Translations under genes and position numbers: made by a program
Notes under the pieces: generated by a model
Seen by the model: only the letters and a program-made list of their open reading frames with translations
What the model was told of the DNA's origin: nothing
Databases searched by the model: none
Part shown: positions 16,580 to 19,832 of the stretch, in pieces
Layout of the letters: each line of letters opens with the position of its first letter
How positions within the stretch are numbered: position 1 is the first letter of the stretch
Origin: Clostridia bacterium
GTDB lineage: Bacteria; Bacillota; Clostridia; Oscillospirales; CAG-272
Reading direction: 5' to 3'
Assembly (NCBI GenBank): GCA_017621085.1
Contig: JAGATW010000070.1
Span: forward strand, 1 to 61,420
DNA length: 61,420 nt

Positions 16580-17920
16580 TTATTTCTTTGTTCTTTTTGC
16601 TATACAAGCTACAAGCGTGGAAAAATAGCAAAGCACGATTATTTCCACAATAAAATGGTAGATGTTGACTTGTAAGGTATCTATTTGTGTGCGTAAAAAC
16701 AACTCCACACCAACAAAAATGGCAAAAGCACCTATCACAAGGCGATGTGCCTTGTTAATGAGCTTATCCTTTACAAGTGCAAAAATAATAAGCACAAAGC
16801 CTACCATATTAGCAAGAGCTAAAGCATCTCCAATGAACACATTTGCAAAAGAGAAAAGCTGATTTATTATATATGCATCTTGACTGATTATTTCAGGCAT
16901 AAATACAAATATCAAGCTACTAAGAATTTGACCAATAAATATGGATAAAGCCTCGCTTAAAAGTATAGTGGTACAACCGGCATTAAGAAGCTTATTTTTG
17001 TGCAATCTTTGATATTCATAACCAAAATAGGTAAGAAAAATTAAAAGTGTCATTTTTATATAAATATCAAAGTTAGACAATATTGAAACAAGCTGTGTAG
17101 CGCTTGTCTGTGATATAGGCAGACTGTCTATAAATATGACGCATGCAGTATATACTGCATAAATAAAAATTGTGATAAGCAAGGAGATAATAGTGGACTT
17201 GGAAATAGAATTTTCACAATCATAGCTACATTTTTCAAGGAATGAGTAGAGTAGATATAGCAAAGAAAGCTCTATGAAGGAAACGAAAAAATATACTAAT
17301 ATTTCTAAAATGATTTTTAATATAATTGTCGAGCTAAGGCTTTTTACTATTAATAGCCCCAAAAAAGAAATTATAGCTATGCCAAGAAAAGCTAAAGCAT
17401 AAAGAGAAAGCTTTCCTATATTCTTAAAAACATTTTTATAATAGTGTTCGCTATCCATAATAGAATAGTTAAAATAAATATCGTTTCTTCTAAAGCTGAA
17501 AACAACATATACCCCTACAATAAAGAGCAGAACAAATATAATCCCACCAAAGCCCTGGTCAGCAAAATTATATGACTTGCCAATATATAAAGCAATAGGC
17601 ATAACAAAGGCAAATACACCTAAGATTAATTTTATCAAAATTGATGAAGCCTTGTTATAAAAAGCATTTTTTATTAAGTCAGCTCGCTCGTCCTTTACGC
17701 TAAGCTTACTTATTATAAAGCCAATAGCTAAAACTATTAATGTGCTTACGCAAATGGCAATTTCCAAGCTAACAAACCAAAAATGCTTGTTGCCATGAGA
17801 GTTTCTAATTATATTTGCAAGGTGAATAATACCAAGCATCAAGGAAATAACAAAGGACATAAAAATAGCATTACGTGATATTTTCCCCTTTACATTTTCA
17901 ATTCTTTCGTCGTAAAACAT
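16580..17920 (-). CDS. Polytopic membrane protein of unknown function
   Basis: About a dozen hydrophobic segments; DER motif repeated; start placed at MFYDER after GGAGG, 1 nt downstream of the XRE stop. Confidence 0.7.
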   Translation of the reverse strand: MFYDERIENVKGKISRNAIFMSFVISLMLGIIHLANIIRNSHGNKHFWFVSLEIAICVSTLIVLAIGFIISKLSVKDERADLIKNAFYNKASSILIKLILGVFAFVMPIALYIGKSYNFADQGFGGIIFVLLFIVGVYVVFSFRRNDIYFNYSIMDSEHYYKNVFKNIGKLSLYALAFLGIAIISFLGLLIVKSLSSTIILKIILEILVYFFVSFIELSLLYLLYSFLEKCSYDCENSISKSTIISLLITIFIYAVYTACVIFIDSLPISQTSATQLVSILSNFDIYIKMTLLIFLTYFGYEYQRLHKNKLLNAGCTTILLSEALSIFIGQILSSLIFVFMPEIISQDAYIINQLFSFANVFIGDALALANMVGFVLIIFALVKDKLINKAHRLVIGAFAIFVGVELFLRTQIDTLQVNIYHFIVEIIVLCYFSTLVACIAKRTKK

Positions 17921-17921
17921 A

Positions 17922-18113
17922 TTATTCCCTCCAAAACAAATCATTAAGCGTAACACCCAATTCCTTACATATGCGAATACATAATTCCACCGTGGGATTA
18001 TAGCCACCGTTTTCAATCATATTAATTGTTTGTCTTGAAACTCCGATTTTTTTTGCAAGCTCCGTTTGTGACAAGTTTTTTAAAGCACGCGCTTGCTTCA
18101 TCTTTTCGTTCAT
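17922..18113 (-). CDS. XRE-family helix-turn-helix regulator
   Basis: LSQTELAKKIGVSRQTINMIENGGYNPT; AGGAGG RBS. Confidence 0.92.
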   Translation of the reverse strand: MNEKMKQARALKNLSQTELAKKIGVSRQTINMIENGGYNPTVELCIRICKELGVTLNDLFWRE

Positions 18114-18123
18114 TTTGACCTCC

Positions 18124-18191
18124 TGTCAAATATATTTGACAAATTGATTATATCACAGACATCATAAATTGTCAAGTATATTTGACAATTT
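18124..18191 (-). promoter_or_regulatory. Consensus sigma-A promoter with two palindromic operators
   Basis: TTGACA(18175-18170)-17-TATAAT(18152-18147) with TGn extension; palindromes TGTCAAATATATTTGACA (18124-18141) and AAATTGTCAAGTATATTTGACAATTT (18166-18191). Confidence 0.8.
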
Positions 18192-18195
18192 CGGT

Positions 18196-18230
18196 AAAAA
18201 AACAGCCTCGCAAACACGAGACTGTTCTTT
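18196..18230 (-). terminator. Terminator downstream of the four-helix-bundle gene
   Basis: AACAGCCTCG-CAAACA-CGAGACTGTT with an A-run on the left (U-tail on the minus strand). Confidence 0.65.
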
Positions 18231-18247
18231 TGATATTAATTTTTAGC

Positions 18248-18601
18248 TTACTGTTTTTCCTTTAAGGTTGTAATAGAGGAAACAAGCATTCGGCGGAGAG
18301 TAATAATTTGGTTATTATAGTAAGCAAGCCTTTCATTTGAAAGACGTCCAACCTCAAAAAGAAGAGAAAGCCAAAACTCGCTCTCGTTACATTCTTTGAG
18401 AGCAATTTCAAGCTTAGATATAAAATCCTTTGTTCCCTGCGCATATTGAGCCTCGTGAATATTTGCTCCTACCGAGGTGCCACAACGAATTAATTGATTT
18501 ATTAAAGCGCCTTCTACACCATTGGCTTTTAATTCTCTAAAAAGAAAAACTATATCTTTTGCAAAAACCTTTGATTTTTCTCTTAAAATGCTATCTGCCA
18601 T
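18248..18601 (-). CDS. Four-helix-bundle protein (23S rRNA IVS-protein / Avd-like family)
   Basis: NQLIRCGTSVGANIHEA, DFISKLEIALKECNESEFWL signature; AAGGGAG RBS. Confidence 0.9.
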   Translation of the reverse strand: MADSILREKSKVFAKDIVFLFRELKANGVEGALINQLIRCGTSVGANIHEAQYAQGTKDFISKLEIALKECNESEFWLSLLFEVGRLSNERLAYYNNQIITLRRMLVSSITTLKEKQ

Positions 18602-18625
18602 ATTTGCTCCCTTCTGGTTTCAAAC

Positions 18626-18787
18626 GTGACGTAGTCACTCATAACTACACGAAGTGTATCATAACAATGCGAAGCATTTCATAACATTTTCACAGATACA
18701 AAGATAAGAGTTGCTATAGCAACGTTATGAGTTAGCAAGCTAACGTTATGAATTAAGCGAAGCATTTAGCTTCGCTTAATGTTATGA
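18626..18787. repeat. Heptamer-plus-hairpin array: 3x TCATAAC, 3x GTTATGA, six variable perfect hairpins
   Basis: TCATAAC at 18639, 18659, 18679; GTTATGA at 18724, 18745, 18781; each heptamer is directly preceded by a different inverted repeat. Confidence 0.9.
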
Positions 18788-18836
18788 TATTAATTTTTTG
18801 TGAAAATTCATAGTTGATTTTTGATTGCATCAAAAA

Positions 18837-19832
18837 TCATTCCCACTCAATAGTAGAAATTGGCTTTGGTGAGAGGTCATATGCAACACGGCATACACCA
18901 TCTACTTCCTTTAGAATTCTGTCGGTTACAGTTTTTAAAAGCTCCCAAGGAAGCTCAGGTACAGTTGCGGTCATTGCGTCAACAGAGTTAACAGCACGAA
19001 TGATTACGCACCAGTCGTAAACTCTGTGGTCGTTTTTAACACCAACGGAGCACATATTTGGAATTACAGTAAAGAACTGCCAAATCTTGTCTGTATAGCC
19101 TGCCTTTTCAACCTCTTCACGAAGAATAGCATCACTTTCTCTTACAGCCTCAAGTCTATCTCTTGTAATAGCGCCTGTGCATCTTACACCAAGACCGGGA
19201 CCCGGGAATGGCTGACGATAAACCATAGACTCCGGCAAGCCAAGAGCGATACCTACAACTCTTACCTCGTCCTTATAAAGAAGCTCAAGTGGCTCAACAA
19301 GCTTAAACTTCAAATCCTTTGGAAGTCCACCAACATTGTGGTGAGCCTTGTGACCCTTTTTGCTTTCAATAATGTCAGGATAAATAGTACCCTGAGCTAA
19401 ATATTTAACACCCTTAAGCTTTCTTGCCTCTTCAGCAAAAACCTCAATAAATTCTTTACCGATAATAGAGCGCTTTTCCTCAGGACCGGCTACATTTTTA
19501 AGCTTACCTAAGAAACGGTCAGTTGCATCAATATAAATAAGATTAGCATTAAGCTCCTTTTGGAAAACCTCAATAACGCTTTCACTCTCATTCTTACGCA
19601 TTAAGCCGTGGTTAACGTGAACGCAGTAAAGCTGCTTGCCAACTGCCTTAATAAGAAGTGCAGCCAAAACAGAGGAGTCAACACCACCGGAAAGAGCCAA
19701 AAGAACCTTTTTGTCCCCTACCTGATTACGAATGTTTTCAACCTGTTCGTCAATAAATTTGTTTGCAAGCTCCATAGTGGTAATACGTGGCATATCGTCC
19801 GGACGTACAACCTCGTTTTTCTTTTGAGCCAT
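18837..19832 (-). CDS. guaA: GMP synthase, ATP-pyrophosphatase and dimerisation domains only (no glutaminase domain)
   Basis: LSGGVDSSV, AQGTIYPDIIES, HHNVGGLP, RQPFPGPGLGVR, KPISTIEWE; 331 aa; AGGAGG RBS. Confidence 0.9.
   Translation of the reverse strand: MAQKKNEVVRPDDMPRITTMELANKFIDEQVENIRNQVGDKKVLLALSGGVDSSVLAALLIKAVGKQLYCVHVNHGLMRKNESESVIEVFQKELNANLIYIDATDRFLGKLKNVAGPEEKRSIIGKEFIEVFAEEARKLKGVKYLAQGTIYPDIIESKKGHKAHHNVGGLPKDLKFKLVEPLELLYKDEVRVVGIALGLPESMVYRQPFPGPGLGVRCTGAITRDRLEAVRESDAILREEVEKAGYTDKIWQFFTVIPNMCSVGVKNDHRVYDWCVIIRAVNSVDAMTATVPELPWELLKTVTDRILKEVDGVCRVAYDLSPKPISTIEWE

Follow-up and report, generated by a model that had tools for sequence, protein, structure and literature searches.

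The DNA analyzed here is a 61,420-nucleotide stretch (the window) from Clostridia bacterium (GenBank assembly GCA_017621085.1, contig JAGATW010000070.1). The window is one whole contig, and the assembly is 1.9 Mb in length and 65% complete. Upstream of a gene for a four-helix-bundle protein of family PF05635, the window contains an array of hairpins separated by a repeated seven-base word (heptamer), which reads TCATAAC in one orientation and GTTATGA in the other. We conclude with high confidence that this array is a two-armed, divergent copy of a dispersed modular repeat class, and that the Rfam family Gut-1 (RF01706) is one word variant of the class. With equal confidence, the unit of the class is a perfectly paired hairpin that is conserved in structure only, usually with a three-base loop closed by a C-G pair, and that abuts an invariant seven-base word. 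Inverted arrays of family-specific heptamers accompany 72 of 108 PF05635 genes of the genus (67%), versus 59 of 1027 control open reading frames (ORFs) of this genome (5.7%).

The array can be divided into the following features, listed in the order in which they are read on the minus strand.

18815-25/18829-39, minus strand: 11-base-pair hairpin over the guaA stop codon with a GCA loop on the minus strand, identified by inverted-repeat search. It comes first among the hairpins of the element and may be a 3' end structure of guaA; a hairpin is present at the same position in G065, G066, G069, and G025.
18808..18814, minus strand: outer heptamer variant, ACTATGA in the minus-strand reading, identified from the sequence. 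AACTATGA is the opening of most copies.
18799..18807, minus strand: S, ATTTTCACA, the 5' half of a helix that brackets arm 1, identified by complementarity and covariation with S'.
18710..18787, minus strand: arm 1, three TCATAAC words, each followed by a perfect hairpin (18752-80, 18731-44, and 18710-23), identified from the sequence and from compensatory changes relative to G009, G065, and G017.
18686..18694, minus strand: S', TGTGAAAAT, which completes the bracketing helix on its 3' side and lies immediately 5' of arm 2, identified by complementarity and covariation.
18626..18685, minus strand: arm 2, three GTTATGA words, each followed by a 5-base-pair hairpin whose loop in the sense RNA is of the form C-UNC-G. 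It is the arm that resembles Gut-1, identified from the sequence and by comparison with the Gut-1 consensus.

On the plus strand, TCATAAC begins at positions 18639, 18659, and 18679, and GTTATGA at 18724, 18745, and 18781. The plus-strand hairpins of arm 2 are GTGAC-GTA-GTCAC (18626-38), TACAC-GAA-GTGTA (18646-58), and AATGC-GAA-GCATT (18666-78). Those of arm 1 are GTTGC-TATA-GCAAC (18710-23), GTTAGC-AA-GCTAAC (18731-44), and a 12-base-pair stem (18752-80). The final hairpin of arm 1 (18710-23), together with its T-rich tail, has a terminator-like score in a consensus scan. The 61-kb window contains 17 copies of TCATAAC, compared with 9.5 +/- 3.4 expected, and six of the 17 lie inside 150 nucleotides. 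The heptamers, hairpins, and long-range complements that a preliminary description had read from this sequence are all present, far beyond chance. These include the nine-base complement between 18686-94 and 18799-18807 and the 11-base-pair hairpin (18815-18839) that contains the guaA stop.

Unit statistics were taken from 134 distinct spacers between consecutive TCATAAC words. End-to-end hairpins are formed by 102 spacers, 86 of them perfect, and the closing pair is C-G in 90 of the 102. Among the 71 three-base loops on the TCATAAC strand, 37 are GNA and one is TNC. This skew gives each unit a polarity and makes one arm the mirror image of the other.

The association with PF05635 genes was scored as at least two copies of one 7-mer in each orientation within 420 nucleotides upstream, using the 108 PF05635 genes of the genus. 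Both arms lie upstream in 57 of these genes, and in 15 more the word is upstream and its complement downstream. The 59 control ORFs that qualify do so mostly with A/T-rich chance words. When at least three word copies are required in each orientation, 47 of the 108 genes qualify, versus none of 3000 random 350-nucleotide windows. A co-occurrence with four-helix-bundle genes, raised in the preliminary description, is strongly confirmed by these counts (72 of 108 genes versus 5.7% of controls).

The same architecture is built on other words upstream of PF05635 genes of the genus, among them GTGATAT, ATGATGT, ATGAAGC, GTGAAGT, and GCTAAAT. At least 28 word groups exist. Close PF05635 relatives have words that differ by one or two bases, and the difference is present in all copies together. 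In the protein tree, the TCATAAC-linked PF05635 proteins form one clade (support 100/99) beside the GTGATAT-linked proteins. Arm sizes are within one unit of each other in 50 of the 57 two-armed cassettes, and the word-to-word distance is 18-24 nucleotides in 121 of 215 cases. Loops in these cassettes are skewed by arm, with no GNA and 14 TNC loops in arm 1, and eight GNA and four TNC loops in arm 2. A same-strand transfer RNA (tRNA) gene lies approximately 250-400 nucleotides upstream of 21 of the 60 PF05635 loci scanned. Outside the genus, PF05635 genes with tandem NNNNTGA heptamers on their flanks occur in one Bacteroidales and one Chloroflexaceae metagenome-assembled genome (MAG).

In a deep-branching PF05635 group (L198-L201, L206, L208, L219, L224, L225, L230, and L245), the genes stand between plain tandem heptamers such as GCTGACN, CAGTGGT, and ATGCAGA. 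In this group the complement is on the other side of the gene, a layout like that of the intervening sequences (IVS) of 23S ribosomal RNA (rRNA) genes, without hairpins. Many PF05635 genes and Gut-1 matches sit a few hundred bases from contig ends. Such a position is expected if the repeats, or adjoining tRNA or rRNA genes, break assemblies.

The Gut-1 consensus is composed of three hairpins separated by GUGAAAU, and the gathering threshold of its covariance model is 50 bits. In an Rfam scan, this model matches array arms upstream of PF05635 genes, one arm per strand. The two arms score 52.0/42.8 bits at L202, 68.9/45.1 at L250, 65.3/51.5 at L252, and 58.0/44.0 at L263. The score follows the word: GTGAAAT cassettes score 58-69 bits and related words 30-46 bits, while TCATAAC, GCTAAAT, and TGAATTG cassettes, including TCATAAC-linked L166 and L280, score nothing. 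No match was obtained at the window array (17800-19600) at E values up to 10, in contig C112, that of the window, at E values up to 0.01, or in 20 TCATAAC-family loci at E values up to 0.1.

Placement of the window copy in the same class is based on architecture. Gut-1 has at least three variable hairpins and one conserved heptamer, and arm 2 of the window has this plan, with GUUAUGA followed by a hairpin three times in the sense RNA; the window copy does not reach the Gut-1 score. Homology with Gut-1 copies is possible: in the protein tree, the TCATAAC-linked PF05635 proteins are sister to the GTGATAT-linked ones, whose arrays match Gut-1. TCATAAC, GTGATAT, and TCGATAT elements have the terminal hairpin CGTGATACTC...GAGTATCACG in common. 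The preliminary description had recognized no named element here. This holds for the window copy, which matches no Rfam family, and not for the class, which is that of Rfam Gut-1. Since RF01706 misses whole subfamilies, a word-agnostic model is needed.

There are 789 Gut-1 matches in 50 genomes of the genus, 47 of which are positive. Thirty are in this genome, none of them on the contig of the window. The Gut-1 elements of this genome are mostly one-armed, approximately 130 nucleotides long, and start directly after a stop codon.

As DNA, the plus strand folds into a nested ladder in which two four-way junctions have no linker bases (z = -7.9), and none of 200 shuffles is equally stable. The minus strand as RNA folds with z = -5.4. 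The ladder is the minimum-energy fold of both strands with RNA and DNA parameters alike, and enforcing the S-S' helix costs 1.7 to 11.4 kcal/mol. The two consecutive four-way junctions without linker bases that had been drawn earlier are therefore the computed minimum. Covariation was scored in an alignment of four orthologous guaA-downstream loci, with 500 shuffles and slid controls. Twelve pairs are altered on both sides, all in local hairpins or in S-S'. This number was reached by none of the 500 shuffles, and slid controls gave 0-3. The stems are therefore under selection for pairing.

The ladder itself does not share this pattern. Its three heptamer helices contain no compensatory changes, and their four variable cells are two wobble and two broken pairs. 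The S-S' helix (ATTTTCACA/TGTGAAAAT) crosses the ladder and has two compensated pairs; it covaries in G009 (ATTTTCGCA/TGCGAAAAT) and in G012 (TCGTTTCGCA/TGCGAAACGA). A bracket of this type, at least eight nucleotides long, is present around arm 1 in 21 loci and around arm 2 in one locus. In the RNAalifold consensus the hairpins are retained, and a pairing between the first heptamers of the two arms encloses arm 1. The proposal of selection on structure is upheld for the stems (12 compensated pairs; 86 of 134 spacers perfect hairpins) and not for the ladder as the selected form. The heptamer partners lack compensation, the crossing S-S' helix covaries, and most relatives are one-armed, yet the ladder is the energy minimum. 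The ladder is a possible fold, but it is another than the one visibly preserved by evolution.

The strand in which these structures act can be addressed through the Gut-1 relatives. A same-strand ORF of at least 100 codons ends within 120 nucleotides upstream of 18 of the 30 Gut-1 matches of this genome; an ORF on the other strand does so for one of the 30. Single-stranded DNA of the top strand had been proposed as the functional form, and this orientation, sense after stop codons in 18 cases versus 1, speaks against it and favors RNA. The RNA reading is based on the orientation bias of the relatives and on the trailer position. The C-GNA-G loops cited for DNA are real as a polarity of the TCATAAC strand (37 of 71 GNA), but on the GTTATGA strand they simply read as UNC loops.

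The TCATAAC family is patchily distributed. Two further TCATAAC/GTTATGA arrays are present in the same genome (C74 and C99). A triple-heptamer pattern was found in 16 of 61 related genomes, every one in the same genus, and across the order in 11 of 401 genomes and 8 of 178 genera. The reversed pattern, used as a control, gave no matches in the 61 or in the 401 genomes. MAGs titled uncultured Ruminococcus, Clostridia, Eubacteriales, or Oscillospiraceae carry arrays (among the matches listed). Copies in Bacteroidota and Cyanobacteria were set aside as plain tandem (GTTATGA)n without hairpins (among the matches listed). A phage origin was rejected, with hairpin spacers in none of 80 viral-contig loci among the matches listed.

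The usual TCATAAC element is approximately 210 nucleotides in length and contains (in order) AACTATGA, a hairpin, a GTTATGA arm, a core, a TCATAAC arm, and TCTAAAC-TAAAAC. One-armed TCATAAC arrays exist as well (L002 and L006). Copies within a genome are up to 96% identical over 268 nucleotides, and G004 has identical arrays at four contig ends. The array downstream of guaA is present in G009, G012 (as a tandem duplicate), G017, G025, G065, G066, and G069, and the site is empty in, for example, G027, G021, and G068. One G012 copy is an insertion relative to the empty sites G000:C67 and G015, and its insertion point lies between the hairpin halves CATCCCAC...GTGGGATG.

Several further repeats were observed near these arrays. 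At L187 (G012:C48, approximately 1403-1800), the whole unit from guaA stop to start codon is tandemly duplicated and joined at a short TGAC(T) repeat. Two-armed arrays with the words TCGATAT and GTGATAT are located at G000:C97:60-330, C28:110-330, C116:11430-11700, C8:22640-22850, and C117:16200-16390. No PF05635 gene was found in this genome for these five arrays. They have the terminal hairpin CGTGATACTC...GAGTATCACG and a terminator-like hairpin in common with the TCATAAC elements. An array of a different kind, at G000:C73:300-900, contains seven copies of the 14-base palindrome GTTTCACGTGAAAC spaced 40-130 nucleotides apart. Small repeat modules lie beside or inside arrays at L008:1235-1416, G000:C74:1300-1440, G000:C128, and C73, for example GGACCGTCGGGGACGTCGGTCCCTACAA, or GGGCTAAGCCCAAACCC...TACACAAG followed by a terminator-like hairpin. 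These modules look like the right end of the IS200-type copy of G000:C86, from which they may be derived. A ZMP/ZTP riboswitch match (L005:1503-1582, 49.5 bits, above threshold) is near an array locus and is unrelated.

The explanation that we favor, at somewhat short of an even chance, is that the array is a transcribed cis element of a PF05635 cassette and that its heptamers are a recognition code. The array would be transcribed on the minus strand, as the trailer of guaA and the leader of the four-helix-bundle gene. Its hairpins may act as rigid spacers that keep the heptamers single-stranded in RNA or, in two-armed copies, allow the arms to zip. The heptamer would be the recognition code of the cassette, each PF05635 family of the genus having its own word, identical in all copies of both arms. 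The words are invariant while the stems drift freely, with compensation, so the word is probably what is read. The likeliest reader would be the pentameric Avd-like protein of the adjoining gene, because the family-specific words change in concert and the gene association is tight. The S-S' helix and arm-to-arm pairing may be alternative folds that expose or hide the words, and the many gene-free copies may be derivatives spread by insertion. For the window copy we infer transcription and binding by a protein, with any regulatory outcome that may follow. No promoter-like site was found between the array and the PF05635 gene of the window in a consensus scan.

Several observations weigh against this explanation. 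A PF05635 gene is nearby in just one of 51 TCATAAC-array loci, and all 30 Gut-1 matches of this genome are without one. G028, which is 96% complete, has TCATAAC arrays and no TCATAAC-linked PF05635 gene among those found. Because of such genomes, the PF05635 protein is not needed in cis. Across genomes, the PF05635 gene count and the Gut-1 count are weakly correlated (rho 0.32), the genomes not being independent. In L202, L204, L209, L210, and L213, array and gene are separated by a good promoter, and the array is there outside the messenger RNA of that gene. In the sense RNA, the window arm that adjoins guaA carries TCATAAC, which is opposite to the orientation usual for Gut-1, and the arm order of the window is present in 12 of the 57 two-armed cassettes, versus 33 with the TGA-type arm first. 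For the recurrent hairpin GGTGAGC-GAAA-GCGAGCC, stability depends on tandem G.A pairs, which only the TCATAAC strand provides. The U.G pairs of the Gut-1 model favor the strand opposite to the TCATAAC strand, so the mismatch-based evidence is mixed. Counts of G.T versus A.C mismatches (7 versus 3) are too few for a strand test.

Two other explanations are each unlikely, to a similar degree. The arrays may instead act at the DNA level, as the ends or the recognition sites of a mobile element, the arms resembling terminal inverted repeats. A recombinase, HUH-type or other, would read hairpin and word on single-stranded or cruciform DNA, with the four-helix-bundle gene as cargo or accessory. The polar units and mirror-image arms (GNA 37 versus TNC 1 on the TCATAAC strand, and cassette arms likewise skewed) agree with this. 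Both C-GNA-G loops and tandem G.A pairs are characteristic features of stable hairpins in DNA. Near-identical copies, copies at contig ends, filled and empty sites, patchy spread across families, and the G012 insertion between two hairpin halves would also be expected of a mobile element. The arrays are, however, unaccompanied by any transposase or recombinase gene. A link to HUH or repetitive extragenic palindrome (REP) transposases, raised earlier, was sought with PF01797 (Y1/RAYT-like) in the 50 genomes of the genus. None was found: the eight stretches around weak matches contain no array and at most two scattered heptamers, and G005 (with the most arrays, 19 pattern matches) and G028 contain no PF01797 match. 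Two IS200-type copies are present in this genome, and the C86 copy alone has one GTTATGA, at its right end. Single-armed copies are oriented 18:1 to the upstream gene, which a pure DNA element would not need, and hairpin spacers are lacking in the 80 viral-contig loci noted above. Alternatively, the arrays may be generic 3' untranslated region (UTR) stem-loops like REPs or bacterial interspersed mosaic elements (BIMEs). These would protect against 3' exonucleases or insulate genes, with no reader of the heptamer, and PF05635 cassettes would insert into them or travel with them. The position of arrays directly after stop codons and before terminators, the very high copy number, the terminator-like arm 1 hairpin of the window, and the precedent of REP/BIME elements all fit. 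A stabilizer, however, needs stems and not an invariant single-stranded word, and here it is the stems that drift and the word that is identical across the units of an element. The word also changes in concert between closely related cassettes, and the presence of arrays at 67% of PF05635 genes versus 5.7% of controls is too strong for chance co-location.

The heptamers might also be double-stranded operator or iteron-like sites. Spaced approximately two helical turns apart, they would bind a DNA regulator of an adjacent promoter, possibly the four-helix-bundle protein itself. The distances of 18-24 nucleotides (121 of 215) and the -35 box directly after the last heptamer in L202, L209, L210, and L213 are consistent with such sites. 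They would leave the perfect-palindrome spacers with compensatory changes unexplained, along with hundreds of promoter-less 3' UTR copies, and the window has no promoter-like site between array and gene. This explanation is very improbable. An extension of the recognition-code explanation is a long shot, in which PF05635 cassettes and Gut-1-type arrays would together form a sequence-coded recognition network. Each family would have a 7-base word, the cassette would provide a pentameric binder and an "anti-word" arm, dozens of one-armed arrays at the 3' UTRs of ordinary genes would display the corresponding words between their hairpin spacers, and arms would zip in cis or in trans into the ladder. 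If true, this would be a multivalent, register-free RNA-RNA (or RNA-protein) lock of an undescribed kind, and it would explain the identical, concertedly changing words within an element.

The genes flanking the array lie on the minus strand in the order guaA part, array, ribosome-binding site (RBS), PF05635 gene, terminator-like hairpin, and an XRE-type regulator gene with two palindromic operators. The flanking features are as follows.

18837..19832, minus strand: guaA, the ATP-pyrophosphatase part of GMP synthase, from a profile match to model positions 196-512 of 512.
18599..18611, minus strand: RBS GGGAG (18607-18611) and start codon ATG (18599-18601) of the four-helix-bundle gene, read in the sequence and the ORF list.
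18248..18601, minus strand: gene for the 117-amino-acid PF05635/TIGR02436 four-helix-bundle protein (Avd-like, "23S rRNA intervening sequence protein"), from profile matches.
18196..18226, minus strand: hairpin and T run, the likely terminator of the four-helix-bundle gene, read in the sequence and absent from the consensus-scan list.

The 117-amino-acid protein matches Pfam PF05635 with E = 1.9e-21 and TIGR02436 with E = 6.4e-26. Its nearest solved structure is PDB 2rld_A (E = 1.7e-23), an entry with five chains. PADLOC gave no match for this protein. The guaA ORF (18837-19832) encodes 331 amino acids without a glutamine amidotransferase domain, and the next upstream ORF scanned is GtrA-like. 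This guaA is either split or truncated. An Rfam scan gave no rRNA match in 17800-19600.

Downstream on the minus strand (17922-18113 and 18124-18191), two copies of the palindrome TGTCAA(A/G)TATATTTGACA lie over a perfect TTGACA-17-TATAAT promoter (12/12, with TG). This promoter precedes a 63-amino-acid XRE/RstR-like helix-turn-helix ORF. The ORF and palindromes look like a classic autoregulated repressor. Rfam microRNA "hits" at the position of the XRE promoter are the TATATTTGACA palindrome itself.

The class is among the commonest repeats of the genus and is the standard upstream companion of its PF05635 genes. Gut-1 has been an orphan Rfam motif since 2010, known as "human gut only" and without host, partner, or function, and here it gains a host genus. 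PF05635 proteins ("23S rRNA IVS protein", stand-alone relatives of the Avd protein of diversity-generating retroelements, DGRs) are very common and equally unexplained. One hypothesis may serve both orphans, namely that each Avd-like pentamer binds its own heptamer array. The heptamer repeats beside PF05635 genes in Coxiella, Bacteroidales, and Chloroflexaceae suggest the same story.

In the portion of the original report available (Weinberg et al. 2010, Genome Biol 11:R31; PMC2864571), Gut-1 is listed as an RNA ("Y"), from human gut sequence only, and not cis-regulatory. The window array shares its unit plan, with hairpins of free sequence, one conserved heptamer, and loops of the C-UNC-G type. 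It differs in its word, GUUAUGA/UCAUAAC, which the RF01706 model misses. In the available text of PMC2864571, Gut-1 is a single-armed, free-standing non-coding RNA with no gene link. The available main-text description mentions no inverted second arm, no S-S' bracket, no set of word variants, and no link to PF05635. No paper tying Gut-1 or hairpin/heptamer arrays to PF05635 was found in the literature, outside Additional File 1 of PMC2864571, which was not covered and may bear on this point.

The IVS of 23S rRNA genes (Leptospira, Coxiella) also contain a PF05635 ORF, as the window does. According to the available text of PMC4990558, the Coxiella IVS has tandem GACAGAT heptamer repeats before its S23p ORF, in a number that varies between strains. 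The same text describes inverted repeats at the termini, which pair into a stem that RNase III cuts, and regards the IVS as a selfish element of unknown mobility. In contrast, the window copy lies between guaA and an XRE-type regulator gene and not in helix 25 or 45 of a 23S rRNA gene. Both arms of the window are upstream of the ORF with hairpins between the heptamers, and the enclosing form is present in 15 of the 108 relatives.

REP, BIME, and REPIN (paired REP) elements are similarly high-copy extragenic palindromes, often in 3' UTRs and in direct and inverted orientation, and REPINs are two-armed. REP stems are conserved in sequence and have a 5' GTAG. The arrays described here have free stems, a conserved linker word, and no linked REP-associated tyrosine transposase (RAYT), and do not belong to the REP/BIME families with RAYT. 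Integron attC boxes have the forms RYYYAAC and GTTRRRY, with extrahelical bases and with cassettes between sites. An attC identity, judged from the sites alone, was rejected: TCATAAC and GTTATGA fit the AAC/GTT triplet only, and the units are 20 nucleotides apart with no cassette.

Type III toxin-antitoxin systems offer a likeness in the short-repeat array directly upstream of a small protein gene and in the idea of one cognate RNA per protein family. ToxI is composed of identical 36-nucleotide tandem repeats, and ToxN is an endoribonuclease. The units of the window differ from one another except for seven bases, and its protein is of another fold (PF05635) with no PADLOC match. A ToxI-like identity was dropped because of the differing units and the PF05635 protein, and a CRISPR-like one was dropped as well. 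The Avd protein of DGRs works bound to structured RNA. Avd is a pentameric four-helix-bundle protein, and the homology of the PF05635 protein of the window to it follows the available text of PMC10053308.

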